DNA of 64,000 nt, from contig JACRIR010000053.1 in assembly GCA_016215705.1 (NCBI GenBank), forward strand, positions 11,973-75,972. Direction: 5' to 3'. The notes below the pieces were generated by a model that had not been told where the DNA came from, ran no database searches, and worked only from the letters and a program-made list of their open reading frames with translations. The translations under genes were made by a program, and so were the position numbers. This document shows positions 7,575 through 47,359 of the stretch, piece by piece (positions within the stretch are counted from its first letter, which is position 1; every line of letters starts with the position of its first letter). This DNA comes from Candidatus Poribacteria bacterium (GTDB taxonomy: Bacteria; Abyssobacteria; SURF-5).

Positions 7575-9050
7575 TCAGGTTATCCCGAGCCAATCCACAA
7601 GTTTCCTCGAGTCTCCAACCAGTGTCTTCGGTGAACTGTAATAGAGAGAAGCGCGAGTCTTGGCCTTCTTCAGCAATAACGACGGCTTTCGGTTGTATCG
7701 CTCGAACTTCCGGATCGCCGTTCTTGTGATTTCGGAGAATTCACCCGGACTCATGTGCAGTGTAAAGCTGTTGTGGGGACTTTGATGGCTGAACTGGCTC
7801 CAGTCGCGGTCTTGCGGGAACAAGCCCGTCTTGACGGAATTCTCGTAGAGCTCCGTTCCCGGATAGGGCGTGAAAATGCTGAAGGTGCACCAGCATGGTC
7901 GCAGCGTGTCAATGCTCTCCAATGTCCTGGCGATGTCACTGATGTCTTCCTGCGGGAATCCGATCATAAAGAAGGCGGACCAGTAAATCTCGTTTCGGTT
8001 GAGCATCTCGGCCACCTCCCGCATTTTTTCCAAAGTTTCTCCCTTTTTTATCGCCTCAAGAATCCGAGGGCTGCCGCTTTCCACACCTACTTCCACATTG
8101 TTGCAGCCGGCGAGCTTCATCTCACTGATAAGCTCCTCGTCAAGAAGATCGAACCGGGTATTGCATCCCCATTTGACGTCGAGTTGCTCGCTGCGGATCG
8201 CTTCACAGAACTCCAGCGTTCTGTTCTTCCTTAGCGTGAAGCAATCATCCCAAAAAGTAAATTGGCGGGTTCCAAACTTTTCGCGAATGAACCTGATTTC
8301 CTCGATGACGTTGTCGACCGACCGATATCTCACCTTGTGCGTCCAGACGGTATGCGCGGCGCAATAGGTGCATCTGAAGGGGCACCCCCGGGTTGTAATC
8401 ATGTTGCCCATGTTTTCCGGATCGACGACCCTGTTTCCGAGCAACAGGTCTCGGGCAGGAAAGGGAATCGAATCGAGGTCATCTATGAGTGTGCGGGTTC
8501 GGTTGTGTGTGATTACGCCGTCGGGATTCTTGTAGGATATGCCTTGCACGTTTCTCAAATCGGACTTAGCCCCCAGGGCATCGATGAGCTCGACAATCGT
8601 GGTTTCTCCCTCGCCATGGACAACTATGTCCAACTCGCCGCGCGAGAGAACTTCGCGGGCGCAGTTGGTCGAGTGCGGCCCGCCCATGATAACGGGGGCA
8701 TGAGGAAACAGTTTCTTGGATATTGCCGCGACGGAAACGGCAGAGGCGAACTTTACGGTAGGGGCCGTTATGCCGACGACATCGGGGGCATATCGGCGGA
8801 TGGTCTCCCCTATTTCCTTCCAAACGGCATGTCCGTTGTTCCCGAGAGCGTCCAAATACAGGTTGAAAGAGCTTAGTAGCTCGGAAGAACGCAAATAGCG
8901 CTGTTTGTCGTGGAATTCCGCATTGTAGATTCTGACATCGTGTCCCCGGTTCCTGAGCACGGCAGCGAGGTATCCGATACCCAGCGGAAACCAATCGCAT
9001 TTGAAGCGCATGAATCTCTGAAATGGAGGATCAATCAATAGTATTCTCAT
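7575..9050 (-). CDS. Cobalamin-binding radical SAM protein #1
   Basis: B12-binding N-domain (PLGIGYLAA, GGPH, GEGE) plus RGCPFRCTYC (CX3CX2C) and GVESGS. Confidence 0.92.
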   Translation of the reverse strand: MRILLIDPPFQRFMRFKCDWFPLGIGYLAAVLRNRGHDVRIYNAEFHDKQRYLRSSELLSSFNLYLDALGNNGHAVWKEIGETIRRYAPDVVGITAPTVKFASAVSVAAISKKLFPHAPVIMGGPHSTNCAREVLSRGELDIVVHGEGETTIVELIDALGAKSDLRNVQGISYKNPDGVITHNRTRTLIDDLDSIPFPARDLLLGNRVVDPENMGNMITTRGCPFRCTYCAAHTVWTHKVRYRSVDNVIEEIRFIREKFGTRQFTFWDDCFTLRKNRTLEFCEAIRSEQLDVKWGCNTRFDLLDEELISEMKLAGCNNVEVGVESGSPRILEAIKKGETLEKMREVAEMLNRNEIYWSAFFMIGFPQEDISDIARTLESIDTLRPCWCTFSIFTPYPGTELYENSVKTGLFPQDRDWSQFSHQSPHNSFTLHMSPGEFSEITRTAIRKFERYNRKPSLLLKKAKTRASLYYSSPKTLVGDSRKLVDWLGIT

Positions 9051-10189
9051 TTTCCCCTCCCATCGAGCAATGACAGATACAACTGCCCTGTTTTTTTAAC
9101 CATCTTCTCGAGAGTGAAGTTTTGCATTACCCTTTCCTTGGCCGCCATCCCGAGAGCGGTTGCGCGGCGCCGGTCGGACAACAGTCCGATAATGGCGGAG
9201 GCAAGCGAAGGCGGGTCCCCCGGCGGAACAATCGCCGCCGCCTCGCCCACCATTTCCGCTATCCCTCCCACCTCGGTCGCGGCCACGGGCCTCGCGAGCG
9301 CCATTGCCTCCAGCAAAGCCCAGGGAAATCCTTCCTTCACGGACGAAAGCGCGAAGACGTCGAATGCCGGAACAAACTGTGTGGCGTCTTCCCTGTAACC
9401 ATAGAAATGAACTCTATCCTTCAATCCTTTCGACTCCACCTGCGAGCAAATGTCTGCCAGCATCGGACCGTCTCCTATGAGGACCGCATGAACATCCTTC
9501 AGGTTGCGGGACACAATCTCGAAGGCATCGACAAAGAAGCCAAGCCCTTTGTTAGGATAGAAATTGGCAATCGTTCCTATGACTCTGCTGTTTGGCGGCA
9601 GCCCGATGTCTTCTTTGTTGAACCCGCGGGTCTGCGCCAGGCCGCCGGCGTCTATGCCGTTGTGTATCGTCGTTATCTTGTCCTCCCTGCATACTCCTTT
9701 TTGGAGGGCCGAGCGTCGGTCGTAATCCGAGACTGCAATAATGTGGTCTCCGAGCCGGGCGCCCAGCTTTTCCTCCATGAGCGCGACGTAGTGTCGGAGG
9801 CGGCCGGAAGGCTCGTTGAATGAGAATCCATGGGCCGTGAACACGATGAGTGGAGTGTGCGCCATGGCTGCCGCAAGCCGTCCGACAAGACCGGCCTTTG
9901 TGCTATGGGCCGCTACGATGTCGAATTTCCCCCCTACGATTATTCGATAGAGTTCCTTTGTGCACGCAGCGTCGAGCAAAGGAGACAGGGACCGCTTCAA
10001 TGTGGGAAGAGACAGAACCGGCACTCGCGCTCTTTTCAGCCGCTGGATGAGCCGCTCACCTGTTCCACAAACAACCATCGTCTCGAAGACGGTGTTCAGC
10101 CGGCTTGAGAGATGAAAGACGTGGTTGGCCGCACCTCCCGGTTCAGCCTCGGAATTCGTAATGATTCTGAGTATTCGGTGCGACTTCAT
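9047..10189 (-). CDS. Glycosyltransferase family 4
   Basis: GGAA, HSTKAG, IHNGID, EGFPWALLEA (EX7E). Confidence 0.93.
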   Translation of the reverse strand: MKSHRILRIITNSEAEPGGAANHVFHLSSRLNTVFETMVVCGTGERLIQRLKRARVPVLSLPTLKRSLSPLLDAACTKELYRIIVGGKFDIVAAHSTKAGLVGRLAAAMAHTPLIVFTAHGFSFNEPSGRLRHYVALMEEKLGARLGDHIIAVSDYDRRSALQKGVCREDKITTIHNGIDAGGLAQTRGFNKEDIGLPPNSRVIGTIANFYPNKGLGFFVDAFEIVSRNLKDVHAVLIGDGPMLADICSQVESKGLKDRVHFYGYREDATQFVPAFDVFALSSVKEGFPWALLEAMALARPVAATEVGGIAEMVGEAAAIVPPGDPPSLASAIIGLLSDRRRATALGMAAKERVMQNFTLEKMVKKTGQLYLSLLDGRGK

Positions 10190-11343
10190 GAAAGCAACCC
10201 CTTTCCACGTGCCACTTCCCGGTAAAGTTGCTCGGTTTCAGAGACCATCTTTGCGACACTGAAGCATTGCTCAGCACGCTTCCGGCCGGCTGCCCCCATC
10301 TCTCTTGCGCGATAGGGCCGACCCAGTATCTTGTTGATGGCCTCAGCCAAAGGGCGCGACTGCGCCGGCGGCACAAGCAGTCCCGTGACGCCATGTTCCA
10401 CGATTTCGGGTATCGCGTCCACCATCGTCGAAACGACGGGGAGTCCCGCTGCCATGGCCTCCAATAATACAAGTCCGAAACCTTCGCTAAGTGACGGCAA
10501 GACAAAAAGGTCCAACTGCGGCAATATGGCCGCAACATCCGCCCGATATCCAAGAAAGGTGATTTTCTCGTCGAGATGCAAATCGTGAACCTGGGCCCGG
10601 AGAGCCCCCGCAATCGCGGTGTCTTCGCCCCCGATAACCAGTAGATGCGCCTCCTTGTTCGCTTTCAATACCTCCGGCAAGGCATCAAAAAGATACCTAT
10701 GTCCTTTTGGGGGCATGAGTCGGGCGACTACACCAAGAAGTTTTGTTCCCGGTGGAAGACGAAGCTGATTGCGCAGGTCGTTTGTCCCCGGGTCGGATGA
10801 TTGCTTGACGTCGTATCCGTAGTGGATGACCCTCAGTTTTCCGTTGGAAACGCAACCGTTGCGAACCAGATGTTCTCCTACGGCGCGTGAGATTGCGATT
10901 ATTCTGTCAGCCATAGCAAAACTGATCTTTGCAATGCTGTTTGTGGGAAATCTGGCGAAACGCCGACTTGTGTTATGCACCGACACAATCACCGATGGGA
11001 CCCCGCTCCAACGCGCTGCAGGGATTCCATAAAGCTGAGACCTCAGGAGATGAACGTGGACGATATCGAATCTCCCTGCCTTCATGAGGTTAGCCAACCT
11101 TCCGAAAGCGCGGAGATCGAGCAGGGAGCCTGTTTTCAGACTGACCGAAGGGATTCCTCTATCCTCGAACTGCGAAACGAGCGAATCCGACCAGCCTGCC
11201 GAATCATCGAGATAAGCATAAACCGGCTCGAAGGCGGAACGATCAAGTCTGCCCAGCAAACAAAGCAGATGCGCCTCGGCGCCGCCCATCGAGATGCTGT
11301 TGGTGACGTGGAGAATCTTCAGTTTTCTGCCAGTTTTGGCCAC
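10186..11343 (-). CDS. Glycosyltransferase family 4
   Basis: GGAE, VARL..KGH, EGFGLVLLEA. Confidence 0.93.
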   Translation of the reverse strand: MAKTGRKLKILHVTNSISMGGAEAHLLCLLGRLDRSAFEPVYAYLDDSAGWSDSLVSQFEDRGIPSVSLKTGSLLDLRAFGRLANLMKAGRFDIVHVHLLRSQLYGIPAARWSGVPSVIVSVHNTSRRFARFPTNSIAKISFAMADRIIAISRAVGEHLVRNGCVSNGKLRVIHYGYDVKQSSDPGTNDLRNQLRLPPGTKLLGVVARLMPPKGHRYLFDALPEVLKANKEAHLLVIGGEDTAIAGALRAQVHDLHLDEKITFLGYRADVAAILPQLDLFVLPSLSEGFGLVLLEAMAAGLPVVSTMVDAIPEIVEHGVTGLLVPPAQSRPLAEAINKILGRPYRAREMGAAGRKRAEQCFSVAKMVSETEQLYREVARGKGLLS

Positions 11344-12224
11344 TGTTCCAGTCCTTTGTAGTTGATGAGACGAATGCTTTGTTTGTGAACGACTTCCTTC
11401 AAACGTTCACTCACGAGCGCGGCGCGTTCTTCTTCCCTCTGTCTTGCGCGCTGGATCGAGCCACCGAGGAAACCAGCGAGCCTGTCGTCCGCGCTACCCG
11501 GATGCGTAAGCATCTCACAGATGCCCGGTCTGACGTGGCGCATGAGGGCTTCATAACGGCCAACAACACTCAAGGACGGCGGCATGAAACAGCTCGGGAG
11601 ACTGTAAACACGGTTGATTGTTCTCACGCCGGCGATGCGCAGCGAAGGGCGCCCGCGACGACACAGGGCGCTCGTAAACCTCTTTTTGGCATGTCGCCAC
11701 GTTACGAAACCATGCAGAATGCTCGAGAATCCGTCAAAATTCGGCGGCTCATAGGGGAGTCTTACAGGCATTCGCGTTTCTTCTGCAACCTTGAGAAAGA
11801 CCTTGAATATGGTTGGAATCATCATGGTGTTCTGATGGCTGTCGATGTGTGTGGGTTCGATTCCGGCGTCGAGCGTCTTCTGCAACTGAGCGCGTATCTC
11901 GGTTTCCACGTGGCTTACACGCAGCCCTCCACGCAGCCATTGTTTCAACAGAAGGGACCTTGGAAGAAACTTCCCGTCCGGGCCGACCAGAGAAGAGACG
12001 CTGTCTGTCCGCGCCACCGGAGACCCGAAAGTCAAGTTTATATGCACACCTATTCCGAGAGAGGGGTTCCGTTGCGCGTGGGAGACCGCGTCTTCAAACG
12101 CCCATGCGTTGGTCATGAGCGTAGTGCTTGTGACAATGCCATTTCGGTGGCAATCGATTATGGCGTCGTTAACGCCTTCGGTGAGCCCAAACTCGTCGGC
12201 GTTGACGATCAGATACGTTTCCAT
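11319..12224 (-). CDS. ChbG/YdjC/HpnK-family carbohydrate deacetylase
   Basis: LIVNADEFG, GIVTSTTLM, IGVHINLT, PTHIDSHQ, EMLTHPG. Start set at METYLIV (GAGGA RBS). Confidence 0.9.
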   Translation of the reverse strand: METYLIVNADEFGLTEGVNDAIIDCHRNGIVTSTTLMTNAWAFEDAVSHAQRNPSLGIGVHINLTFGSPVARTDSVSSLVGPDGKFLPRSLLLKQWLRGGLRVSHVETEIRAQLQKTLDAGIEPTHIDSHQNTMMIPTIFKVFLKVAEETRMPVRLPYEPPNFDGFSSILHGFVTWRHAKKRFTSALCRRGRPSLRIAGVRTINRVYSLPSCFMPPSLSVVGRYEALMRHVRPGICEMLTHPGSADDRLAGFLGGSIQRARQREEERAALVSERLKEVVHKQSIRLINYKGLEQWPKLAEN

Positions 12225-12273
12225 TTGAGTTCCTCTCATAGAGAAAATCCCGAGGCACGGAGCCATCCCTCAA

Positions 12274-13365
12274 CTATTTCAGACACTTCTTGAGTGCTGC
12301 GCTGACACGCTCCAACTGGCCGTCACGCATGCCCTGATGTACGGGCGCGTACGCCAGCCGCCGGCCAATCCTGCTTGCAATCGGGTACCTCGCTTCATCG
12401 ACCTCGAGCGGGAGGTCCAACCATAACGGCCTCACAACGATTCCTTCTCGGAGCATCTGCCGTATGAACGACGGCCGGTCTTGTACGAACAAGGGGAATC
12501 CCATCGGACTCACTCCGTCAGAGAGCGCCCGGGGCAGCGGGCAGCCGTTTGCATGGCCGTCGGTCTCGTGGAGCAGAAAACAGTAGTTCTTTCTTCTAAG
12601 CGCCACCGTCGCAGATGAATCGACATGGGACAGGACCCTTGCCGACACACGCGCTGAGCCTCGAAGAACTGGTGTGGCCGCGGCGTCTCTTGTCGCAACG
12701 GCTCGCCGCAGGCCCTCGTTCTTCAGGAGCCAAAGGCGTGGAGAAACACGCAGAAGGTTTTCGGCATATCTTGCGAAGTATCTTGATGTCGAAAGCAATT
12801 CAGACAACAGAGGACGTGAGAGAGTCAACGAGAAAAGGTGATGCGCCTCATTCCACGCGAGTATGCCGCCGCCGGGCGCAGGAAGAACCTTTCGAATGCT
12901 GAAGAATGAAAAAGCGCCGGATGAGCCGAGGCGCTTGCCGTCCACGCGAGAATAAAGAGCGTGGGCGCAATCCTCAATCAATAGCATACCAGTTCGCTTG
13001 CAGAACTCGACCGTCTCTTGCATCGGTTGCGGGAATCCAAGGTAGTGAATGACGACCATGGCTTCGGCCCGTTCTCTATGCTTTTCGAGCCATTCAAGGT
13101 CGGGGCTAAGGTCGTCTCGAAGCTCATAAAACACGGGAATGGCCTTGACCGCCTTCGTTGCCGAGACCAGAGCGCCACAGCATAGCGCCGGCAGCAGAAT
13201 CCGTGTCTGCTCCCGCAGCCTCAGCATGCGGAGACCCAGAGCATACGCATTCCTGCCGCCGGAAGTCAGAATAACGTCCTGCTCCCATGAGAAACCACGC
13301 GCGCTTTCTCTACCCAGCAAATCGGCAGGTCTTGGCGGCGGTTCCGGAGTAATGAGTGATCTCAT
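12274..13365 (-). CDS. DegT/DnrJ/EryC1/StrS-like PLP-dependent protein
   Basis: SGGRNA, VIHYLGFPQ, IEDCAHA (PLP Asp), FSIRK (Schiff-base Lys position), RRKNY, PVHQ. Confidence 0.8.
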   Translation of the reverse strand: MRSLITPEPPPRPADLLGRESARGFSWEQDVILTSGGRNAYALGLRMLRLREQTRILLPALCCGALVSATKAVKAIPVFYELRDDLSPDLEWLEKHRERAEAMVVIHYLGFPQPMQETVEFCKRTGMLLIEDCAHALYSRVDGKRLGSSGAFSFFSIRKVLPAPGGGILAWNEAHHLFSLTLSRPLLSELLSTSRYFARYAENLLRVSPRLWLLKNEGLRRAVATRDAAATPVLRGSARVSARVLSHVDSSATVALRRKNYCFLLHETDGHANGCPLPRALSDGVSPMGFPLFVQDRPSFIRQMLREGIVVRPLWLDLPLEVDEARYPIASRIGRRLAYAPVHQGMRDGQLERVSAALKKCLK

Positions 13366-13410
13366 TCCGACTCCCGGCAAGCTATGCGCAATGATCCACT
13401 GTTTCTTGCC

Positions 13411-14535
13411 TTAAATCCTCGATATTCTGATCCGGCCGGCGACTCTGCGAACAAGCTCCGACTCGCGGGCCGCTTCCCGGGCGGAAAGAAACGCAAGATA
13501 CGATCCCAGAATGAATGGCGCCATTGAACCTCGTTTTGTAAAGATGATCCGTCTTGCCACAACAGATGAAGTCGCCTTGCGTTCTTTGTACTCAAGCCGA
13601 CCCTTGCCGAATTCAATGCGCCCAATCCCCCGCTCGCGGCTGTCCCTCATGATGTCTTCCAGCAAAACAGACCCGGGCGAAAGGCCGGCGAATTGAGGGT
13701 CGAACGCAGGGTTGTAGTAGTAAAGCGTTCCATTGAAACAAAAGCACAACGCATATGCCACGACCCTTTCGTCGAGAGCGAGAACCGCAAGGTAGAGCGA
13801 GTCTCGCTCGAGATAGGCCATCGAAATATCCCGGATGAAAGCCCTGCCGTCAGGAGTATTCATGAGCGACCCGGTGTAGTACCCGTTCCACCGACGCCGG
13901 TGAACTTCGAATATCTGCGGCAAGACCGCCTGAAGCTCGCCTGCGCTGTTGACGACTCTGAATTCCACCCTGGCGCCGCCACCCAGTTTTCTGCGCGCCC
14001 GCTTCAAGTTGTATTTGTGCTTTCGTGACGGCTCACCCGCAAGGGGCCACGACCGCAAATCGAGGCTGAAGAACGGCTCATCCGGAGTCTTGCCTTCGGC
14101 GAAAACAAAAGCGTCCTTGCGCGCCAGAATCGCCTCGAGCAACCCGGAATCCGATCTGACGTCGTCTATATCGCACAAATCCCATTGGCGTCCCTTCACA
14201 AGGATTTCATTGACCATGGTTTCGTAGGCGTCACAAGAGCGGTCCCCGGCAAACGGAAAATCACACGGCGCCGCGTGCGGCGCTCCTGCCAAAACGAGCG
14301 TTCTCATGCCAAGGAAATGTTTGCGCACGGCGAGCGGAAGAACCGCTGCAAGCCGCCCTTCTTTCCATGCAGTTGCGACCATCGGGTCAAACCGATCTCC
14401 GAGATGCCTAAACCATTTCTCCAGCCATACCGGCCCGTTGAAGAGCGTATGAGGGGCGGCGCTTAGGGCAAATTCCTCCCACGGGCGCTCAAGTTCCGCG
14501 ATATCATCGGCTTTGTGAAACGTCTTTATTTCCAA
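13411..14535 (-). CDS. GNAT acyltransferase, CelD/BcsL (Acetyltransf_6)-like
   Basis: W...LFNGPVWLEKW, YYNPAFDP...SPGSVLL, EFGKG..EYK. Confidence 0.85.
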   Translation of the reverse strand: MEIKTFHKADDIAELERPWEEFALSAAPHTLFNGPVWLEKWFRHLGDRFDPMVATAWKEGRLAAVLPLAVRKHFLGMRTLVLAGAPHAAPCDFPFAGDRSCDAYETMVNEILVKGRQWDLCDIDDVRSDSGLLEAILARKDAFVFAEGKTPDEPFFSLDLRSWPLAGEPSRKHKYNLKRARRKLGGGARVEFRVVNSAGELQAVLPQIFEVHRRRWNGYYTGSLMNTPDGRAFIRDISMAYLERDSLYLAVLALDERVVAYALCFCFNGTLYYYNPAFDPQFAGLSPGSVLLEDIMRDSRERGIGRIEFGKGRLEYKERKATSSVVARRIIFTKRGSMAPFILGSYLAFLSAREAARESELVRRVAGRIRISRI

Positions 14536-19939: not shown

Positions 19940-19941
19940 AA

Positions 19942-21878: not shown

Positions 21879-22978
21879 CTTATCTTCGCCAGGAATTGGT
21901 TGGCGGAACGTTCAAGCGTGAAGGCTCGCGCCCGTTCGAGTCCGAGACGCTTCATCTGTTCGGCGAGAGTCCGGTCATTAAGCAGTTCGACGACGCGCCC
22001 TGCAAAAGCCTCGACATTGTGGGGCGGAACGAGAAACGGACTCAGCGATTCACCTACCAGTTCGGCTACGCCCCCAACGTCTGTGGCGACAAATGGAACG
22101 CCCATTGCCATCGCCTCCAACAACACATGCGGCGCCCCTTCGGCCTCAGAAGGCATAATCAACAGGTCTGCATCCGAATAGATACGCGGCATTTCAGAAT
22201 TGGGAACAGCGCCGCACATCGTGACATTCGGAAGCTTACTTATCTCATCCCAATACTTCCCTCGACCCGCCACAAAAAATCTGGAGTGCGGCGCGGATTC
22301 GAGGACGAGGGGGATTATCCGGCGGAGATGATGAGCCCCCTTTTCCTTCGAGAGTGTGTGAACGAAGAGAATGTGCTTCCGGCCATTCCTTGATCGGTCC
22401 CGGGTCCGCAAATCGTGGACAAACCGTGTATGCGAAACGTATGGAGGCAATATCACGAACTTGCCACCGGGTAAACCGTACTTTTCCTGATACCACCGGG
22501 CCACCGAGGGCGAAGCGGTCACAACGAAGTCGGATGACCGGAATGAAGCGGACTTGAGCAATGGGTGCAATTTCCTCATGATTCGCGAGCCGGCCTCGCC
22601 ATTGGATTCCCCGCAATGACAATGCCATTGGTAAACTCTTCCTCCGGCAATGCAGGTGACCACGCGGGCAAGGAGCGCATTCCATAGTGAATAGTGGATG
22701 TAAAAAGCCCCGTAACCGAGGAATCGAGCCAACAGGAAGACGGCGAGCGTCTCGAACATTCTGAGCGGCTTGAACGCGAACTTGTTCACATGGAAGAGTC
22801 GCGCGAATTCAGGAGCAGTCTGACCGGCCGAACGCGTCACAATGAGAAAGACGTCGCATCGATCGGAAATCGAACGCAAAAGGTCGCTCACGTGCTGAAG
22901 ATGATCCGCGCTTTTCTCGTCCAGTTCAGGCAAGTAGCAACAGACTTTGGCCTTATTCCGCTTTGAAGATATCTTCAC
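21875..22978 (-). CDS. Glycosyltransferase family 4
   Basis: LSKEKG, EGAPHVLLEA. GTG start overlaps the upstream TGA. Confidence 0.9.
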   Translation of the reverse strand: MKISSKRNKAKVCCYLPELDEKSADHLQHVSDLLRSISDRCDVFLIVTRSAGQTAPEFARLFHVNKFAFKPLRMFETLAVFLLARFLGYGAFYIHYSLWNALLARVVTCIAGGRVYQWHCHCGESNGEAGSRIMRKLHPLLKSASFRSSDFVVTASPSVARWYQEKYGLPGGKFVILPPYVSHTRFVHDLRTRDRSRNGRKHILFVHTLSKEKGAHHLRRIIPLVLESAPHSRFFVAGRGKYWDEISKLPNVTMCGAVPNSEMPRIYSDADLLIMPSEAEGAPHVLLEAMAMGVPFVATDVGGVAELVGESLSPFLVPPHNVEAFAGRVVELLNDRTLAEQMKRLGLERARAFTLERSANQFLAKIR

Positions 22979-23763
22979 CGTGGCCTCACACAAAGAAGTA
23001 GATATTCATTGCCGAATGTTAGCGGGCCGATGCCGAATGATCCGAACCGGAGGATTCCGGAAATCCTTCGCTCGAGGGAAACAAGCTTCCCGGACCGCGC
23101 CCGCGCGGCGACAACAGACCGCAACGGGTATTGGAATCCCACGAGTTTGTGAGCGACCATGGTCAACCGGGCCTCGGCAAGCATCGGGCGCATTCGCGCT
23201 ATGCTCGTAAAATGAAGGTGTTCGTTGAATCTCTTCTTCCGCCCATTCAGATATTTGAGTCTTGAAAGCGTGCTGATCACGGCGGGCTGCATGATGGAGT
23301 CAGCCGGAGCGCTAATCAGGCATCTTCCGTCCCGACGCAGAAGGCGCCCTATTTCCACAAGAAGCGAGAGCGGGTCGAGAACGTGCTCAAGCAGCTCAAA
23401 GCAGAAGACCATATCAAACGAAGCGCTCTTTAGTGGAACGCATTCCGCATCGGCGGCAATGGTGTGACAGCGTTCGATGCGGCCGCGCATGACTCTCAGC
23501 TTGGAGAACGAAAGGTCAAGGCCGATACAGACTGAACACGGCTGCCTGCCCAGCGCGTGTTCGGTGGCGTAGCCGTCACCGCATCCGAGATCGAGCACCC
23601 GCGCAGCGGGCGAAAACGGCAGATGCCTCGCGGCGAAGTCGGCTATCTCCCTCAGCCGCAGGTATTGCGCGTAGGTTCGCGTCCGATCCGCTTTGTACAT
23701 TCTCTGCTCGTCGTCGCTTTGCTGAGAGTAGTAGCGGATGAGGTAGTCTTTAGTGATGTCCAT
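22975..23763 (-). CDS. Class I SAM-dependent methyltransferase
   Basis: VLDLGCGDG, GLDLS, ADAE, FD...ELLEHV. Start MDITKD. Confidence 0.9.
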   Translation of the reverse strand: MDITKDYLIRYYSQQSDDEQRMYKADRTRTYAQYLRLREIADFAARHLPFSPAARVLDLGCGDGYATEHALGRQPCSVCIGLDLSFSKLRVMRGRIERCHTIAADAECVPLKSASFDMVFCFELLEHVLDPLSLLVEIGRLLRRDGRCLISAPADSIMQPAVISTLSRLKYLNGRKKRFNEHLHFTSIARMRPMLAEARLTMVAHKLVGFQYPLRSVVAARARSGKLVSLERRISGILRFGSFGIGPLTFGNEYLLLCVRPR

Positions 23764-24949
23764 TCGTTTCGCTCGCCTGCAAGAACATTCGATGATAGCC
23801 CTTGAGAATCGACTCTTCACTATACTTGGCCAGGAGATGGCTTCGAGCGGCCCGCCCCATTTCCGCCGCCTTTACAGGGTCGCGGAGAAGCTCGAGCGTT
23901 GTTCCCGCCAATTGAGCCGGGTTGTCCCTTTCCACGATAAAACCGGTCGTTCCGTCTATTATCGCGTCGGATGCGCCACTCACATCCGTTGAGACCGAGG
24001 GGCGCCCCGCTGCCGCAGCCTCCAGGACTACGATTGCGTTTCCCTCATAAAGAGAGGGCAATATAAAGACGTCGCACGCCGCGAAATACTCAGGCAGTTG
24101 CTGGTGTTCTATGGCGCCGAGAAAAACGACTTTCTGTTCCAGACCTAGTCTCCGGACGCGCTCTTCGAGGTCGGCCAGCTCACGCCCCTGCCCGATGACA
24201 AGGAGCAACGCCGTGTTCCATGACTCGGAGATTATCTTCATAGCCGAAATAAGATTGTGAACGTTTTTCTGTTTGACCAGGCGTCCAACGAACAGCAAGA
24301 GGCGGTCGAATCTGTCGACAAGAAGGCGGGCGCGAACATCTTCTCCACGCGCGGAGGCGAACCGCGTAAAGTCGGTAAGCCAGCCGATCTCGTGTATGCG
24401 CTCCTGAGAAACACCCATCGCGGTCAGCTTCTCACGCTCGGACGCGCTGCAAACCCTGAATCCCGCCCCTCGTTTTATCAGCCATTTGCCGACGGCATTC
24501 ATGAACCTGTTCCTCGGCGACTCTCTGCGCCAGTATGGGTTGTCAATCATGTCGCCCGCAAAGGAAAAAACAACCGGCTTCTCGAACACTCGCCCGAGAA
24601 CATAACCGACCACGCCTGATGAGAATGGGTCTTGCGTGTAGACGACGTCAATCGGCGTTCTCCGCATTATCTCCGATCCCAGTTTCACCGCATCGGCCAT
24701 GAAACCGACGCGCCCTCGGGAATTGGTCGGATATAAAAAGCATCGATCCCCCAGACGCGACTCCCGTTGGATCGCCGAGTGGAAACTACGCATCACGATA
24801 TGAATGCTGTCGCATACGGACTGCAAAGCCATGACCCGGCGCGTTGAATCGCCCAGTCGCCCATCCGTGCCCTTGGCCAGATTTGAATCAAGGCTTATGC
24901 ACAGGACACGCGGCAAACGTTGATTTTTCTGTTCGTAAACCGTATCCAA
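23750..24949 (-). CDS. Glycosyltransferase family 4
   Basis: FVGRLVKQK, EGNAIVVLEA. Confidence 0.92.
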   Translation of the reverse strand: MDTVYEQKNQRLPRVLCISLDSNLAKGTDGRLGDSTRRVMALQSVCDSIHIVMRSFHSAIQRESRLGDRCFLYPTNSRGRVGFMADAVKLGSEIMRRTPIDVVYTQDPFSSGVVGYVLGRVFEKPVVFSFAGDMIDNPYWRRESPRNRFMNAVGKWLIKRGAGFRVCSASEREKLTAMGVSQERIHEIGWLTDFTRFASARGEDVRARLLVDRFDRLLLFVGRLVKQKNVHNLISAMKIISESWNTALLLVIGQGRELADLEERVRRLGLEQKVVFLGAIEHQQLPEYFAACDVFILPSLYEGNAIVVLEAAAAGRPSVSTDVSGASDAIIDGTTGFIVERDNPAQLAGTTLELLRDPVKAAEMGRAARSHLLAKYSEESILKGYHRMFLQASETNGHH

Positions 24950-24952
24950 TGT

Positions 24953-26392
24953 TCAGACCTTCAAACGGCTGTGAATGGAGCGCAAACACTTCCCCATGTA
25001 TGACCCGTTCAACGTGCGTCGCAAAAGGAAATCCACGAGCCTGGCGTCATAAGGCAACTGCAGAAACTGGCGCTTCAGCCGGAATTCGGCGACCATATCG
25101 AGCAACGGCAACCGATAGTTCAGGAATTTGAGATATTCACGTATCCAATAGAGATCATCGCTCTTGGCCCATGGCAGCCTCAGCATGGGGCTCCATCTGT
25201 CCATGATGCCCCACCCCTTTGTTGTGCCAGGTGGCTCAAAACCCTCGGCCAGCGCTATTTCATAGAGCGCGGTTCCCGGATACGGAAGATAGGGGCCGAC
25301 CGTTATTGTCTTGTTTCGATGGACTTTATGAATCCACAGAAGCATTTCGATCGTCTTCTTCAACTCTTCCGGCTTCTCGGTCGGCAGACCCGTTATGGCG
25401 GAATAGCCGACCCTCAAGTCATATTTGGCAAGAAGTTTCACGGCTTTCTTGATGTCTTCGCAGGTTATCTTCTTGCCCAGGAGATTCAGAATGCGGTCAC
25501 TGCCTGACTCGACTCCAATCAGCAGGTCAAATACGCCGAACTCTTTAAGTCGCTGGAGCAGGGTCTCGTCAACCAGATCGATACGGATATCGGTCTTGGC
25601 GGGAATAGCGATACCTGCGAGAATCTCGACGGCCCGTTTCTTGTTCACGAAGAAGGTGTCGTCATAGAAACATACGGCATCGATGCCGTACTCTCGCTTG
25701 AGAAAGCCGATTTCCTCGATGACGCGATCCGGTGACTTGGCGCGCCAGCGTCCCCGATTGAATCGCTGGTTATAGCAGAACGCGCATTGATAGGGACACC
25801 CTCTGCTGGTCTTGTAGGCAACAACGCGCGAGAAGCTCCTCAGCCGGGTAAAATAGGAGGGAACATCAAGCAGATCAAACCGAAGCCGATACTTATCATT
25901 GTCCAGATTCTCGATAAAAGGTCTCGGAGCATTAAGTCGAACTGTGCCGCGGCTCTTGTATCCCAGCCCTGGTATCGAGTCGAAGCTTTTCGTGTGGTCG
26001 AGCATCCGCGCGAGGTCAATTGCCGTCTCTTCACCCTCGCCAACCACGACAAAGTCGATGTAGTCTTCGCCCAGGCATTGCTGTGGAACGAGGGAAGGAT
26101 GAATGCCTCCCCACACGATGGGAATGGTCTCGTCGGAGCGCCTGATTGCTTCGGAGAGAAGCGCGGAATGAAGCGTCTGGGGCCCGGTCATAACGGAGAA
26201 CCCCACAAAGAGCGGCTTTTCCTTCACTATCCCGGCGCTGGTCGCCTCGATCTGTTTCTCCGTGCAGTGGATGATACGGACGTCGAAGCCAACGTTCTTG
26301 AGAGCGCTTCCCACGTGGAGTAAACCGAGCGGCATTATGTCAGTGGAAAAATCGCCGCTGTTTTCCACCTGAACGAGACATATCATTTCCAA
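24953..26392 (-). CDS. Cobalamin-binding radical SAM protein #3
   Basis: PLGLLHV, WGGIHPS, GEGE, RGCPYQCAFC, GVESGS. Confidence 0.92.
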   Translation of the reverse strand: MEMICLVQVENSGDFSTDIMPLGLLHVGSALKNVGFDVRIIHCTEKQIEATSAGIVKEKPLFVGFSVMTGPQTLHSALLSEAIRRSDETIPIVWGGIHPSLVPQQCLGEDYIDFVVVGEGEETAIDLARMLDHTKSFDSIPGLGYKSRGTVRLNAPRPFIENLDNDKYRLRFDLLDVPSYFTRLRSFSRVVAYKTSRGCPYQCAFCYNQRFNRGRWRAKSPDRVIEEIGFLKREYGIDAVCFYDDTFFVNKKRAVEILAGIAIPAKTDIRIDLVDETLLQRLKEFGVFDLLIGVESGSDRILNLLGKKITCEDIKKAVKLLAKYDLRVGYSAITGLPTEKPEELKKTIEMLLWIHKVHRNKTITVGPYLPYPGTALYEIALAEGFEPPGTTKGWGIMDRWSPMLRLPWAKSDDLYWIREYLKFLNYRLPLLDMVAEFRLKRQFLQLPYDARLVDFLLRRTLNGSYMGKCLRSIHSRLKV

Positions 26393-27606
26393 CTCTCCAA
26401 TTTTGCTTCAACTCGAGCCCGCTCCCGCAAATCGCAGCGCCCGGCCCGTTCAATGGCAAACCGATAAAGGTTCACGACTTCATCCAGATTCTCTTCGATA
26501 TCGAATCTTCTTGCATGTTCGGCGGCGAACTGTCCCATGGCTATACGAAGGTCGTCATGGTCAATCAGTGTCTGCAGACGGGCCGCCATTTCCGCCGTGT
26601 CGCCCGCGCTAACCAGATAGCCTGCGCGTCCGTGGGGCACTACGTCGGGCACGCCGCCGGTGTTGACCGCCACAACCGGCAATCCCGCAGCCATCGCTTG
26701 CACGAGAGCGATTCCGAACGGTTCGTAGCGGCTGGCCGAGCAGAAGATGTGGGCGCTTTGAAAATGTTCTTTCATTCCCGTGGGGGACTCCGGTCCAACC
26801 AGGCAAACATAGTTTTCCAGCCCCATTTCTCGCGTCATTATTTCCAGCCGCGAGGTTATTTCCCGGTTCTCTCCGCCGACGATCTTCAACCTGACACGAC
26901 GCTTGTCAAGCACGCTGAACGCAGTAAGCACGTCCTCGACGCGCTTCCAGCGCGCGAACCGGCACGCCGAGAGTATTGTCAATTGCCCGTTCGTCCCGGC
27001 ACACGAATCGGTCGCTGCCCGCCTGTCCAATCGGATGAAGTTGGGCATGGTGACCACTTTTTCCGCGGACACTCTGTGGTAGTCGTAAACCGACCGAGTT
27101 TGAAAGGTGGACGTCGACCAAACGGCGTCAAACAGCGAAAAGCAGTATCGCTCAAGCATCGCCAGCGCTCTCGCCGGAAGCGAACTCGTGAAGACTCCTT
27201 CGTATGAGCCTGCATAACCCTTTGAAGCGGTCCTCTCCCAAACAAGGTCTCCGGCATACTTGACGACAGAGGGTATTCCCAGCTTCCGCGCAACCCGTCC
27301 TGACACGAGACAGAGGTAATTCATGCCGGAGACGTGGTGTACAACGTCAGGCCGTGTCTCCGTCAGAATTCTCATGGATTGATGATAGGCATTCGCGTAC
27401 TTTGTCGGCGCAGAGAGTCCTCCGCCGAATTCCCGCAATCGGTGAACCGGAATCCCGTCAACGCTCTCGAACGAGTTGTCTTCCCCGAACGTGATGACAA
27501 AGGCGTCAAAACCCCTTTGTCTGAGTTCAAGCGCCAGATGATACGTCTGGGTCGAGGGACCGCTTATTCGCGGCGGGAATACACTGGTAAACAGGCAGAC
27601 TCTCAA
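26383..27606 (-). CDS. Glycosyltransferase family 4
   Basis: FPPRISG, RFARWK, EPFGIALVQA. Confidence 0.9.
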   Translation of the reverse strand: MRVCLFTSVFPPRISGPSTQTYHLALELRQRGFDAFVITFGEDNSFESVDGIPVHRLREFGGGLSAPTKYANAYHQSMRILTETRPDVVHHVSGMNYLCLVSGRVARKLGIPSVVKYAGDLVWERTASKGYAGSYEGVFTSSLPARALAMLERYCFSLFDAVWSTSTFQTRSVYDYHRVSAEKVVTMPNFIRLDRRAATDSCAGTNGQLTILSACRFARWKRVEDVLTAFSVLDKRRVRLKIVGGENREITSRLEIMTREMGLENYVCLVGPESPTGMKEHFQSAHIFCSASRYEPFGIALVQAMAAGLPVVAVNTGGVPDVVPHGRAGYLVSAGDTAEMAARLQTLIDHDDLRIAMGQFAAEHARRFDIEENLDEVVNLYRFAIERAGRCDLRERARVEAKLESWK

Positions 27607-27609
27607 TTA

Positions 27610-29145
27610 TCACCTCGCAACCAGGCGCGATTTGACTCGGAACACTTCAGCGGCCTTTCGCACGCGCCGCCTTCCCTTGGTCGAGAACGCATGCATGACC
27701 GCAAGATGCGTCGCCATAAGAACCGATTGCTCCAGCGCATATAGCGGATGCTTCCAAAGATTCGTGGATATATGAAACTTGTAGTTGGTCGGAAGTGAGA
27801 CCTCTCGTTCAAATTTTGCGAAAAGCTCGTTGAATCGCTGCGGCGTCATGTCGGCGAACGTGAAATCCGCGGCGACATATTTGTCCCACAGGTCATCCCA
27901 GTTGTCCGGCTTGCTTATTATTCCGTTCGCAAGGAACTCCTTGTAAAGTCGCGTGCCGGGAATCGGATACAACTTCCCTTTGTTTATCCGGTCCGGATGA
28001 CACCTCTTCAGGAACGATATCGTTGCGAGAATGTCATCTGCCGTCTCCGTGGGAAGCCCCATCATCATGTTGACTTCGCACGAGATGCCGGCCTCTTTCG
28101 TGTGCCTGACGGCGGCTTCGTTTTGTTCCACGTTGGCTTTCTTGCCTAACAGATCGAGTATCCGTTGAGAGCCGCTTTCACACCCGTAAATAATCCGGAC
28201 GCATCCTGCTTCCCTCATGAGCTTCAGCAAAGCGGGCGTGACGCAATCCACCCTAAGATTCGTCCCCCATCGAATCCTGCCGGATATGCCGGAACTGAGC
28301 ATTTTCTCGCACAGCAATTCGACACGCGCCTTGCGAAGCGCGAATATGTCCTCGGCGAACAGAATGCCGTCCACTCCATATTCGTTCATGAGATGGGTGA
28401 TTTCATTCATGACATACTCCGGCGACTGGAATCTCACGTAAGGGCCCGTGTTGGCGGCGGCGAGGCAGTCCCTTGCGCAATAGCTGCATGAGTACGGACA
28501 TCCGCGAGTTGTAAACACGTTCGTGGCATTGAGGAAAAAGCCTCGCAAAGTTGTGCCGTTGCTGCTGAAATAGGTTTGCCGGTCCAGCAGATGACGCGCT
28601 GGATAAGGCAGTTGATCGAGGTCCTGCACAAACGCTCTTATGGGATTGTGGATGATTCCCAGGCCGCCGCGGAGCGTCAAACCCTTGATAGTGGGGAATG
28701 GCGCGCCCGAGGCAATCTCGCACATTACCTCTTCACCCTCTCCCCTGACAACTGCGTCTATCTCCGGGCATTGATCGAGCGTGCTTGCGGGCTCAACCGT
28801 GGCATGACATCCTCCAACTATCACCTGAATGGAAGAATCGAGTCGCTTCACGATCTTTGCCGTCCTGTAAGCATCGGATATCTGCGTGGTCGTGGCGGTA
28901 ACACCCACGATCGCGGGACCGAATCCGCCCAGGACAGCGCGCGTTAAATCATCAAGAGCCGCCAGGTTTTCATGCGTCCTCTTGCGTCCGCCGATAAGCC
29001 ACCGCCTCTCCAGGATTCTCACCTCATGCCCCGCCTTCTCGAGGGCGGCGGCGATATATGCGATTCCCAGCGGCGGCCATTTTGCGGCCAGATCGTTTTC
29101 CCACATGGAATTCTGAATGAGAGGATTGATAAGACACACTCGCAT
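27610..29145 (-). CDS. Cobalamin-binding radical SAM protein #4
   Basis: PPLGIAYIAA, GGCH, GEGE, RGCPYSCSYC, GCESGS. Confidence 0.92.
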   Translation of the reverse strand: MRVCLINPLIQNSMWENDLAAKWPPLGIAYIAAALEKAGHEVRILERRWLIGGRKRTHENLAALDDLTRAVLGGFGPAIVGVTATTTQISDAYRTAKIVKRLDSSIQVIVGGCHATVEPASTLDQCPEIDAVVRGEGEEVMCEIASGAPFPTIKGLTLRGGLGIIHNPIRAFVQDLDQLPYPARHLLDRQTYFSSNGTTLRGFFLNATNVFTTRGCPYSCSYCARDCLAAANTGPYVRFQSPEYVMNEITHLMNEYGVDGILFAEDIFALRKARVELLCEKMLSSGISGRIRWGTNLRVDCVTPALLKLMREAGCVRIIYGCESGSQRILDLLGKKANVEQNEAAVRHTKEAGISCEVNMMMGLPTETADDILATISFLKRCHPDRINKGKLYPIPGTRLYKEFLANGIISKPDNWDDLWDKYVAADFTFADMTPQRFNELFAKFEREVSLPTNYKFHISTNLWKHPLYALEQSVLMATHLAVMHAFSTKGRRRVRKAAEVFRVKSRLVAR

Positions 29146-35209: not shown

Positions 35210-35230
35210 TGTTTCAAATCCCACCCTTCG

Positions 35231-47348: not shown

Positions 47349-47359
47349 GGGGGCCCCGG

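Follow-up and report, generated by a model that had tools for sequence, protein, structure and literature searches.

Four B12-binding radical SAM enzymes as probable sugar-tailoring enzymes of a Wzx/Wzy exopolysaccharide operon

Introduction

A 30-kb exopolysaccharide operon of an uncultured groundwater bacterium encodes four radical SAM enzymes (rSAMs A–D) with B12-binding domains. They are probably sugar-tailoring enzymes of a Wzx/Wzy heteropolysaccharide line that act on the lipid-linked oligosaccharide. In its general form, a glycan-directed role for the four is well supported by their divergence and conservation, by a linkage to glycan genes that crosses phyla, and by the fusion of their relatives to glycosyltransferases. 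The initial annotation of this DNA knew of no characterised role for such enzymes on a Wzy-dependent repeat unit; a search of the literature likewise found no described role of B12-type rSAMs of this kind in Wzx/Wzy loci.

Organisation of the operon

The operon occupies the minus strand of the window (the whole stretch of 64,000 nucleotides that was analysed) from about 36547 to 6146. The initial annotation had proposed a Wzx/Wzy-type locus at 7575..29145. The locus type is borne out, with Wza and Wzc export genes present, and the proposed span does enclose the rSAM genes, but the priming transferase lies just outside its start and the operon runs on upstream of 29145 through a deacetylase, a first Wzy_C protein, Wzc, Wza and a BBP2_2 barrel. 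By Pfam and NCBIfam models, the export and assembly set consists of Wza, Wzc, Wzx, two Wzy_C proteins, one priming transferase and seven GT4 glycosyltransferases; the tailoring set consists of two deacetylases, one acyltransferase, a DegT-like aminotransferase, two class I methyltransferases and the four rSAMs.

The first clear gene encodes the outer-membrane β-barrel BBP2_2 (35231..36547; PF10082, 88.9 bits), whose ortholog at the same position in genome G002 is 64% identical; a possible leading reading frame of 152 aa with a signal peptide (36560-37018) may precede it. There follow a Wza-type polysaccharide export protein (OPX; 34256..35224; Poly_export and two SLBB domains, lipoprotein-like N-terminus), a Wzc-type co-polymerase and tyrosine autokinase (PCP-2a; 31966..34242; Wzz, GNVR and P-loop; TIGR01007, 175.8 bits against a cut-off of 108) and Wzy_C/O-antigen-ligase-like membrane protein no. 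1 (29944..31953; PF04932, 67 bits; 11 hydrophobic segments). Where the latter overlaps the deacetylase frame, at 29944-30407, the conserved frame is that of the Wzy_C protein. The CE4 polysaccharide deacetylase itself (29148..29942, 264 aa; PF01522, 89.9 bits) shows no signal peptide or transmembrane segment by hydropathy.

Next come rSAM A (27610..29145), GT4 no. 1 (26383..27606; Glycos_transf_1 and Glyco_trans_4_4), rSAM B (24953..26392), GT4 no. 2 (23750..24949), methyltransferase 1 (22975..23820; Methyltransf_11, 67.6 bits), GT4 nos. 3 (21875..22993) and 4 (20637..21878), methyltransferase 2 (19942..20646; Methyltransf_23, 69 bits), the MOP-family flippase Wzx (18482..19939, 485 aa; Polysacc_synt_3, 242 bits), GT4 no. 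5 (17397..18485, 362 aa; Glyco_trans_1_4), rSAM C (16012..17400) and Wzy_C membrane protein no. 2 (14526..16076, start uncertain; PF04932, 54.6 bits; 8 hydrophobic segments). The initial annotation had passed over the stretch beyond this point, which holds a FemAB-like GNAT acyltransferase (13411..14535; Acetyltransf_6, PF13480, 111 bits), a DegT/DnrJ/EryC1-like PLP enzyme (12274..13380; PF01041, 76.9 bits, N-terminal half only) and a YdjC-family carbohydrate deacetylase (11319..12266; PF04794, 203.8 bits), which among solved structures most resembles a chitooligosaccharide deacetylase. Of the solved structures, TlmJ is closest to the DegT-like enzyme; the alignment covers residues 42-361 and places a lysine opposite a TlmJ lysine. 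GT4 nos. 6 (10186..11343) and 7 (9047..10189) follow; like nos. 2, 3 and 4, they were identified by Pfam, and the stop of no. 7 overlaps the start of rSAM D (7575..9050) by 4 nt. The last gene encodes the priming polyprenyl-phosphate glycosyl-1-phosphate transferase (6146..7570; Bac_transf, 234.5 bits; TIGR03025, 398 bits against a cut-off of 295.55).

Three over-long reading frames were trimmed to conserved starts: the deacetylase to ATG 29942, Wzx to ATG 19939 and GT4 no. 5 to ATG 18485. Over the initial 163 codons of its over-long frame, GT4 no. 5 shows conservation of 41% and 36%, where the Wzx frame reaches 71% and 65%. With these starts, intergenic gaps are at most 30 nt and overlaps 4-25 nt. 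The tight coupling, the order of transcription from deacetylase to priming transferase, the seven GT4 genes and the two methyltransferases (by their Pfam domains) all agree with what had first been described. The rSAMs, deacetylases, methyltransferases and most of the GT4s have no hydrophobic segments and are therefore probably cytoplasmic.

Four divergent radical SAM enzymes

Both diagnostic domains, B12-binding PF02310 (cut-off 32.1 bits) and radical SAM PF04055 (29.5 bits), are found in rSAM A (511 aa; 82.8 and 76.7 bits), B (479 aa, with a start that may be an ATG two codons in; 75.8 and 88.7), C (462 aa; 65.2 and 73.5) and D (491 aa; 75.7 and 92.7). Each has exactly one CxxxCxxC motif: CPYSCSYC at residue 216 in A, CPYQCAFC at 199 in B, CPYPCFFC at 202 in C and CPFRCTYC at 223 in D. 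The motifs PLG, GGxH, EGE, RGCPxxCxxC, GxESGS and PxPGT are common to all, and pairwise identity is 28-33%, so that the description of four intact and distinct genes stands.

None of the four reaches any NCBIfam cut-off and, judged by these cut-offs, they fall outside every characterised family, in keeping with the initial annotation. Partial matches are highest to the RiPP enzyme ApyD for B, C and D (148-218 bits, cut-off 750) and to BchE, the anaerobic Mg-protoporphyrin monomethyl ester cyclase, for A (184.6 bits, cut-off 481); below cut-off there is also similarity to a ladderane-lipid enzyme (152 bits), HpnR and HpnJ. BchE is a frequent automatic name on proteins of this type. That identity was rejected as a mis-annotation: authentic BchE sequences, which score 822-856 bits, group in a clade of their own (support 100), apart from A–D. 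In the same phylogeny the four enzymes fall in four separate clades, each containing foreign orthologs (SH-aLRT support 99 for the clade of A). On sequence grounds they are four old, separate lineages.

A predicted model of rSAM D (pLDDT 95.6) is most similar, over its full length, to AprD4 with a bound aminoglycoside sugar (TM 0.70/0.75), followed by the cobalamin enzymes MgmA, TsrM, CysS, OxsB and TokK. AprD4 is also the closest solved protein by sequence (E = 2.3e-34), over the rSAM core only (residues 175-415). The host genome encodes 19 such rSAMs, and at least five of the other 15 also adjoin glycosyltransferase genes.

Conservation and linkage to glycan genes

The locus is syntenic in genomes of the same genus (G001) and of another genus of the same family (G002). 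Identities in G001 and G002 are 87% and 80% for rSAM A, 81.5% and 71% for C, and 78% and 73% for D; rSAM B is 81% identical in G001 and was not found in the G002 locus, though both flanking GT4 genes are kept. Across these two genomes the rSAMs are the slowest-evolving proteins of the locus, with dN against G001 of 0.087-0.132 compared with 0.114-0.291 for the other genes, and they are under strong purifying selection. Methyltransferase 2 was not found in the G001 locus, where its flanking glycosyltransferases remain. The tailoring genes are thus accessory, single ones being absent while their neighbours stay.

The linkage extends to another phylum. An Elusimicrobiota genome (G116) contains a homologous locus with orthologs of rSAMs A, B and D together. 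It begins with Wza, Wzc, the first Wzy_C protein, rSAM A (518 bits, 45% identical) and a GT4; further on come GT4 no. 1 (291 bits), two methyltransferases, rSAM B (616 bits) and Wzx; and it ends with a fusion of the acyltransferase to the DegT-like protein, YdjC, rSAM D (348 bits), GT4 nos. 6 (231 bits) and 7 (272 bits), and the priming transferase. Orthologs of rSAM C form 29 clusters elsewhere, at 44-57% identity. Relatives at ortholog level (scoring 280 bits or more against a window rSAM) were located at 12 loci outside the family; at eight of these, glycan genes lie no more than two genes away (G116, L094, L095, L096, L128, G217, G054 and L040), at two they do not, and two loci are uninformative. 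One rSAM D relative (G164, 331 bits) has a non-glycan setting of ketoacyl synthase, ICMT-like methyltransferase, ThiF and three further rSAMs, and no glycosyltransferase was seen near another (L138, 298 bits). For relatives of 28-42% identity, phmmer labelling of neighbours placed a glycan gene within two genes at only 40 of 153 loci, which counts against a general link; Pfam scans of 123 of the 372 unlabelled neighbours added three loci. At ortholog level, linkage to glycan genes is kept across genera and phyla.

The proposal of fixed pairs of glycosyltransferase and tailoring enzyme is not supported in that form: rSAM B of G116 is not beside a glycosyltransferase, and G002 retains both GT4s that flank the absent rSAM B. 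The tailoring genes do lie beside GT4 genes in the window, but only marginally more than by chance. When the order of the 20 genes was shuffled 200,000 times, a GT4 adjoined every one of the six tailoring genes in 3.2% of cases and every one of the four rSAMs in 11%, so adjacency inside one locus is weak evidence.

Among longer relatives of rSAM D, 17 of 30 have glycosyltransferase domains and one a sugar epimerase. The best match among 1.84 billion representatives (P0155) is an rSAM D fused to a GT2, at 56% identity; a 42%-identical ortholog (P0125) has a C-terminal GT4. Ten of the 13 long proteins in the top 150 representatives contain GT2, GT4, WsaF-like or Glyco_trans_1_2 domains, with either partner first. 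These independent fusions support the link to glycans.

Proposed function and alternatives

On the cytoplasmic side of the membrane, the priming transferase and seven GT4s would assemble the repeat unit on a polyprenyl carrier. After flipping by Wzx and polymerisation by a Wzy_C protein, the product would be exported by Wzc, Wza and the BBP2_2 barrel. Most likely the four soluble class-B (B12-domain) rSAMs work alongside the glycosyltransferases and modify the lipid-linked oligosaccharide as it grows, before it is flipped; each would use a 5'-deoxyadenosyl radical to abstract hydrogen at an unactivated carbon of the sugar. We infer the lipid-linked stage, the use of cobalamin and the outcome of the reaction. 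Two observations count against cobalamin use: CbiC and CbiD were not found in the 92%-complete host genome, although CobS was, and AprD4, the closest solved structure, is described in PMC12931638 as not binding cobalamin. An anaerobic lifestyle of the host, as first supposed, is plausible.

It is possible that the rSAMs instead act ahead of sugar transfer, on the nucleotide-activated sugars, supplying the GT4s with unusual (C-methyl, deoxy or rearranged) NDP-sugars. NAD-dependent epimerase/dehydratase genes do lie beside orthologs in G116, L094, L096 and G217, the relative P0150 carries a fused RmlD/GDP-mannose-dehydratase-type domain, and the DegT-like enzyme is of a kind that normally acts on NDP-keto-sugars. 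Against this, Pfam detects no nucleotidyltransferase or sugar dehydratase in the window operon, the fusions are to glycosyltransferases in 17 of 30 longer relatives and to an NDP-sugar enzyme in only one, and deacetylases of the CE4 and YdjC families usually act on glycosides, not nucleotide sugars. This earlier step is unlikely, though less so than the alternatives that follow.

Modification of a lipid (the polyprenyl carrier, a glycolipid anchor or a membrane lipid) by enzymes like HpnP/HpnR or those of ladderane and tetraether lipids, merely co-transcribed with the glycan genes, would account for the sub-threshold lipid-family similarities and for the ketoacyl synthase and ICMT-like methyltransferase in G164. 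It is improbable, since no score reaches a lipid-family cut-off, and repeated GT2, GT4 and WsaF-like fusions and co-travel with the same glycosyltransferases across phyla would be unexpected for a general membrane-lipid enzyme. A peptide or protein substrate, whether of RiPP type or a protein that the system secretes or needs for assembly, is suggested by the partial matches to ApyD and by the protein methylase MgmA as second-best solved relative. The gaps of the operon leave no space for a precursor-peptide gene, Pfam detects in it no genes for RiPP recognition, a protease or a transporter, and the glycosyltransferase fusions again argue otherwise; such a substrate is very improbable indeed.

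The initial annotation had envisaged C-methylated, branched or ring-altered sugars. At least some of A–C may perform cobalamin-mediated C-methylation, as do GenK, GenD1 and MoeK5 on glycosides, a possibility that falls somewhat short of an even chance. A little more tentatively, rSAM D, with its conserved sub-module of DegT-like enzyme, acyltransferase, YdjC deacetylase, two GT4s and priming transferase, may act on a de-N-acetylated hexosamine, by ring contraction of the kind proposed for HpnJ or diol dehydration like that of AprD4. From dehydration a keto sugar would result, open to transamination by the DegT-like enzyme and acylation by the acyltransferase. Other radical chemistry would account for the remaining probability.

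Comparison with known systems

In the module that makes the cyclitol ether of bacteriohopanetetrol in Burkholderia and Methylobacterium, the glycosyltransferase HpnI adds GlcNAc to a lipid-bound acceptor, the YdjC-family HpnK deacetylates it, and contraction of the ring has been proposed for the B12-domain rSAM HpnJ, a function that rests on genetics only as these reviews summarise it (PMC13459092, PMC9204698). Two GT4s, YdjC and rSAM D likewise lie in one conserved sub-module here, and in G116 YdjC directly adjoins rSAM D. The acceptor would differ, however, being a polyprenyl-linked repeat unit and not a hopanoid; the transferases are GT4, whereas HpnI is a GT2; and scores against the HpnJ (190.5 bits, cut-off 577.6) and HpnK (147, cut-off 232.6) models are far under the cut-offs.

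AprD4, the 1,2-diol dehydratase of apramycin synthesis (PDB 6FD2), is the closest solved protein by sequence and fold and acts on the sugar ring of paromamine. Its substrate is made by a GT4-type GlcNAc transferase and then a deacetylase. That substrate is a small molecule and not a polymer, the NF033070 score is 137 against a cut-off of 500, and the window rSAMs have clear PF02310 domains, whereas AprD4 is reported as unable to bind cobalamin (PMC12931638). The best precedent for radical tailoring of a glycosidically bound sugar, likened by described function, is provided by GenK, GenD1/GntE, Fms7 and MoeK5, class-B rSAMs described as methylating unactivated sugar carbons in gentamicin, fortimicin and moenomycin (PMC9204698). 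Their products are secondary metabolites and not Wzx/Wzy polysaccharides.

The canonical group 1 capsule and colanic acid loci of E. coli share the priming transferase, glycosyltransferases, Wzx, Wzy_C, Wzc and Wza; the window adds four class-B rSAMs, two cytoplasmic deacetylases and a pair of Wzy_C proteins. To our knowledge, tailoring in canonical Wzx/Wzy loci is by acetyl, pyruvyl and O-methyl transferases, with no rSAM. The glycosyltransferase fusions and the operon context point to a sugar chemistry that has so far been uncharacterised.

Organization of the operon and type of pathway

The four genes for radical SAM (rSAM) proteins with B12-binding domains, designated A (27610–29145), B (24953–26392), C (16012–17400) and D (7575–9050), belong to a single tightly packed minus-strand operon that runs from about 36547 to 6146 according to ORF listing and Pfam/NCBIfam scans. 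In the order of transcription the operon encodes a BBP2_2 outer-membrane barrel, Wza, Wzc and a Wzy_C protein; then a CE4 deacetylase, rSAM A, a GT4 glycosyltransferase, rSAM B, another GT4 and a methyltransferase; then two GT4 proteins, a second methyltransferase, Wzx, a GT4, rSAM C and a second Wzy_C protein; then an Acetyltransf_6 acyltransferase, a DegT-like PLP enzyme and a YdjC deacetylase; and finally two GT4 proteins, rSAM D and a Bac_transf priming transferase. The gene order in the initial annotation is thus correct, and the interval proposed there for the locus (7575 to 29145) lies within the operon, although the operon extends past both of its ends. Three long ORFs overlap their upstream neighbors implausibly. 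Because the upstream frame is the better conserved in related genomes in all three overlaps, the minus-strand starts are likely to be ATG 29942 for the deacetylase (264 aa), ATG 19939 for Wzx and ATG 18485 for GT4_5, the fifth of the seven GT4 proteins. With the refined starts every junction is an overlap of 4–25 nt or a gap of no more than 30 nt.

The components of a Wzx/Wzy pathway are in place. The polyprenyl-phosphate glycosyl-1-phosphate priming transferase is found at 6146–7570, with 234.5 bits to Bac_transf in Pfam and 398 bits to TIGR03025 (cut-off 295.55). The Wzc-type tyrosine autokinase co-polymerase reaches 175.8 bits with TIGR01007 (cut-off 108), and the Wza-type export protein carries Poly_export and SLBB domains. 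The MOP-family flippase (Polysacc_synt_3, 242 bits) and the Wzy-type polymerase (two Wzy_C proteins, 67 and 54.6 bits) are recognized at the level of domains only. An XrtA/PEP-CTERM exopolysaccharide system was considered and rejected: TIGR03013 (cut-off 393.35) gives 375.7 bits, and scores with the stp2 and stp3 models are far below the respective cut-offs. The locus holds no exosortase gene, the single exosortase match of the genome being on another contig, C55. Composition does not favor recent horizontal import, the GC content of the locus (0.54–0.57) being like that of its flanks. An Rfam scan of the entire window returned no match, and hence no cobalamin riboswitch was seen.

The surroundings of the operon are varied. 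Just upstream are a 152-aa signal-peptide protein (36560–37018), kept at the same place with 55% identity in the related genome G002, and an amidohydrolase (37064–38683) that is not conserved there at that place. A set comprising a sensor kinase, a response regulator and a hybrid kinase (469–6101) converges on the operon and stops 45 nt from its end. An HdrD/DsrK-like Fe–S protein (Fer4_8 and CCG domains) with a NarI-like membrane subunit is encoded at 39576–42145, and a second glycan locus at 43908–58854 encodes GT87, four GT2, two GT4, a YfhO-like and a TMEM260-like/TPR protein. Between two of its GT2 genes lies a radical SAM gene that lacks a B12 domain (54181–55587); SPASM rSAMs resembling its product occur in loci of other genomes (G116 and L094) and are fused to B12-rSAMs in the relatives P0143–P0147.

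The four radical SAM proteins

All four proteins display the class B architecture, in which an N-terminal B12-binding domain (PF02310, 65–83 bits) precedes an rSAM core (PF04055, 73–93 bits) with a CxxxCxxC motif; the scores are well above the Pfam cut-offs, the motif occurs once in each protein, and an invariant motif set is common to all four. A quick maximum-likelihood tree (229 sequences; LG+G4, SH-aLRT, midpoint root) places them in four separate clades, of which three contain foreign orthologs: rSAM A groups with L094 and with G116_A from an Elusimicrobiota genome (support 99), rSAM B with G116_B (support 100), and rSAM D with G116_D, L040, L128 and P0125 (support 99). rSAM C groups only with proteins of the related genomes G001 and G002. 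These separate clades, and pairwise identities of only 28–33%, argue against recent tandem duplication of the four genes.

None of the four proteins reaches a curated NCBIfam cut-off; the best partial matches, to ApyD, HpnJ, BchE and PhpK, amount to 134–218 bits against cut-offs of 481–750. For HpnJ (TIGR03471, cut-off 577.6) the scores are 190.5 bits for D, 175.6 for C, 171.4 for A and 134.4 for B. Hopanoid genes (hpnI, hpnK, shc) do not adjoin the rSAM genes, whose neighbors in the locus are exopolysaccharide genes, and the YdjC gene scores 147 bits against an HpnK cut-off of 232.6. Identity with BchE is rejected both by score (TIGR02026, 145–189 bits against 481.35) and by the tree, where true BchE forms a distinct clade (support 100). 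The AprD4 diol dehydratase model (NF033070, cut-off 500) gives 137 bits for D, 112 for C, 76.5 for A and 73.4 for B, and all four proteins likewise fall below the cut-offs for the P-methylases PhpK and Sden_1168, MgmA (TIGR04014), ApyD, the ladderane enzyme, HpnR and BzaD.

Structural comparison leads back to AprD4. An AlphaFold2 model of rSAM D, built from a 60-sequence alignment, has a mean pLDDT of 95.6; in Foldseek its first match is AprD4 with the substrate paromamine (E = 3e-25, TM 0.70/0.75), followed by MgmA, TsrM, CysS, OxsB and TokK, all with TM scores of 0.60–0.70. AprD4 is also the top match by sequence (E = 2.3e-34 for rSAM D and 4.9e-15 for rSAM A). The match to rSAM D spans only the rSAM core, residues 175–415; matches to the cobalamin enzymes TokK, CysS and MgmA begin at residues 88–121, within the N-terminal domain. 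According to PMC12931638, neither AprD4 nor ArsL homologs bind cobalamin, so that the domain can occur without the cofactor; the same source describes 9CCB as a glutamine C-methyltransferase.

The source genome (5.47 Mb, 270 contigs, 92% complete) contains 19 B12-domain rSAM ORFs and 26 PF02310 matches over the cut-off, and at least five of its 15 other B12-rSAMs adjoin glycosyltransferase genes. CobS was found; CbiC and CbiD were not found in this 92%-complete assembly. Corrinoid salvage is possible, and the organism may depend on it. DNA of the window occurs in groundwater metagenome runs, those listed being DNA runs of a single groundwater study, one of them a possible source. A simple hydropathy scan revealed no membrane or signal segments in the rSAMs, the two deacetylases or the methyltransferases, and tailoring is therefore probably cytoplasmic.

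Conservation in close relatives

Full-length orthologs of rSAM A are present in only two of 40 related genomes, G001 of the same genus (87% identity) and G002 of another genus of the family (80%); the remaining seven genomes of the family offer at best paralogs with 34–37% identity. The syntenic locus is present in both genomes. Identities in G001 and G002 are 81.5% and 71% for rSAM C and 78% and 73% for rSAM D; rSAM B is 81% identical in G001, and the GT4 proteins range from 56% to 75%. By these values the rSAMs are among the best-kept proteins of the locus. Their non-synonymous distances to G001 are 0.087–0.132, versus 0.114–0.291 for the other genes; since synonymous sites are saturated (pS 0.5–0.78), dN alone was used and dN/dS ratios were dropped.

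The locus of G002 lacks rSAM B, so that GT4_1 and GT4_2 abut, and that of G001 lacks methyltransferase 2. The tailoring genes thus behave as accessory decorations carried by a stable glycosyltransferase scaffold. The initial annotation had pictured a repeat unit built by pairs of glycosyltransferase and tailoring enzyme; the linkage to glycan genes persists even in the Elusimicrobiota locus, but strict pairing does not, as G002 keeps both GT4 proteins without the intervening rSAM.

Related loci in other phyla

Among 301 genomes from the phylum of an Elusimicrobiales MAG, a search with rSAM A found a single ortholog, in G116 (45% identity), and the surrounding 40 kb proved to be a homologous locus. 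It begins with Wza, Wzc, WzyC1, rSAM A, a GT4, an epimerase and an ortholog of GT4_1, and continues with two methyltransferases, rSAM B (616 bits), Wzx, two glycosyltransferases and a SPASM rSAM. A methyltransferase, two GT4 proteins, Wzy_C, a phosphonate gene set and a further B12-rSAM follow, and the locus closes with an Acetyltransf_6::DegT fusion, YdjC, rSAM D (348 bits), orthologs of GT4_6 and GT4_7, and a priming transferase. Another phylum thus keeps three of the four rSAM lineages in the company of the same partners. The acyltransferase and DegT-like enzyme, neighbors at 12274–14535 of the window, form one 752-aa protein in G116 (L176:8845-11103), and this Rosetta-stone fusion indicates that the two enzymes are connected. 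The phosphonate set (L177, about 21287–28867 of G116:C8) comprises a PEP mutase::cytidylyltransferase, a TPP decarboxylase and an Fe-ADH, followed by Glyphos_transf, a sulfatase-family protein and the further B12-rSAM; it may specify a glycan that bears phosphonate and is made with a step like that of Fom3 or PhpK.

Orthologs of rSAM D occur in four of the same 301 genomes: G116, G217, G054 and G164. In G217 the gene lies downstream of GT11, epimerases, DegT and GT4 and upstream of GT2 and a priming transferase; in G054 it is accompanied by PMT_2, a methyltransferase and GT2. The context in G164 is not glycan-related (ketoacyl synthase, ICMT-like methyltransferase, ThiF and three more rSAMs). 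This non-glycan cluster with four B12-rSAMs (L180, G164:C23:211000-230900), under sigma-54-type regulators, has the appearance of a lipid or natural-product pathway not yet described. Orthologs of rSAM C (44–57% identity) form 29 clusters, whose source names include Aminicenantes and Dehalococcoidales; a survey at E ≤ 1e-100 detected none in 401 genomes sampled from the phylum of locus L050.

The conservation of glycosyltransferase neighbors, proposed earlier as a check, was assessed in all 12 loci outside the family that contain a relative of a window rSAM at 280 bits or more. Glycan genes lie within two genes in eight (G116, L094, L095, L096, L128, G217, G054 and L040) but not in G164 and L138. 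Another two are uninformative, L097 stopping at the rSAM and L161 being 2.2 kb long.

The wider family and its fusions

At E ≤ 1e-3 the representative relatives of rSAM D number 63,395, and at E ≤ 1e-30 they number 14,671, the latter clusters also taking in BchE-like and other relatives. Any NCBIfam cut-off at E ≤ 1e-75 is passed by just five of 77 relatives from named genomes, all five being true BchE from phototrophs. Searching with an rSAM A alignment, which draws on generic motifs, yielded a broad family sample rather than an ortholog census, with matches listed that are mostly paralogs of 28–37% identity. Among the matches listed, a glycan gene lies no more than two genes away in 40 of 153 loci (phmmer labels from the proteins of the window), and another related rSAM is present in 35 of 153; Pfam scans of the first 123 of 372 unlabeled neighbors added three loci with glycan genes. 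A large, mainly archaeal clade of the tree has almost no glycosyltransferase neighbors. Judged by its gene neighborhoods, the broad sample is functionally mixed.

Glycosyltransferase Pfam domains are present in 17 of 30 longer relatives of rSAM D (E ≤ 1e-30), and a sugar epimerase/dehydratase domain in one. P0125 (910 aa) joins a 42% identical rSAM D ortholog (residues 1–492) to a C-terminal GT4, and the eight clusters P0130–P0137 have the opposite domain order. When 1.84 billion representatives were searched exhaustively with HMMER, the top match, P0155 (56% identity), proved to be an rSAM D fused to a GT2 domain. Thirteen scanned proteins among the best 150 representatives exceed 590 aa; ten have GT2, GT4, WsaF-like or Glyco_trans_1_2 domains, one has TPR repeats and two are double rSAMs. 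Fusion to several glycosyltransferase families in both orders implies that the coupling arose repeatedly and independently. Giant proteins of 2100–2340 aa (P0128, P0210, P0213, P0261) were also seen, some with four consecutive rSAM domains; P0261 combines four GT2 domains with a B12-rSAM, a SPASM rSAM and TPR repeats.

Possible chemistry and significance

A glycan-directed role for the rSAMs is well supported by three independent lines of comparative evidence: syntenic conservation under purifying selection, joint travel with glycan genes across phyla, and repeated fusion to glycosyltransferases. Known class B enzymes act on antibiotics, cofactors, lipids and peptides, and to our knowledge hardly any work has addressed radical SAM chemistry on the polysaccharides of bacterial surfaces. 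A literature search, mostly outside subscription journals, found no report of radical SAM together with cobalamin or B12 in exopolysaccharide, capsule, O-antigen or Wzx/Wzy loci. Precedents exist in other settings: in PMC9204698, HpnJ, BchE and OxsB are listed as non-methylating cobalamin rSAMs, and GenK, GenD1, Fms7 and MoeK5 as methylases of gentamicin, fortimicin and moenomycin biosynthesis.

The conserved sub-module around rSAM D consists of the DegT-like enzyme, acyltransferase, YdjC, rSAM D, two GT4 proteins and the priming transferase. In hopanoid synthesis, as described in PMC13459092, HpnI attaches GlcNAc to bacteriohopanetetrol and HpnK removes its acetyl group; HpnJ, known through the phenotype of a deletion, is a putative rSAM for contraction of the ring. 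The sub-module resembles this logic of GlcNAc transfer, deacetylation and rSAM action. In the aminoglycoside pathway GlcNAc transfer and deacetylation lead to dehydration by AprD4, a sequence that the sub-module resembles as well. A lysine of the DegT-like enzyme aligns with a lysine of TlmJ, and Pfam identifies no sugar dehydratase in the operon; a radical route to a keto sugar is thus an attractive, if speculative, idea.

It is possible, though we consider it doubtful, that the rSAMs remodel sugars already in the lipid-linked repeat unit, within physical rSAM–glycosyltransferase assembly lines of the kind suggested by the fused forms, giving residues new to Wzy-type polysaccharides. The products could be C-methyl-branched sugars, carbocyclic (cyclitol-like) units arising from glucosamine through ring contraction of the HpnJ type, or deoxy-amino sugars whose synthesis needs no NDP-sugar dehydratase; in the last case radical dehydration would be followed by DegT-type transamination and acylation on the lipid. 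The priming transferase, the two GT4 proteins, YdjC and rSAM D constitute a small, testable system.

If the rSAMs tailor repeat units, the exopolysaccharide repertoire of anoxic habitats would exceed what sugar-nucleotide pathways predict, a very large uncharacterized portion of the class B rSAMs would gain a substrate class, and many database entries called ‘BchE’ or ‘YgiQ’ would be misnamed. Were remodeling on the lipid to prove true, these proteins would represent a widespread, unrecognized branch of glycan biosynthesis, with thousands of relatives in uncultured anaerobes.
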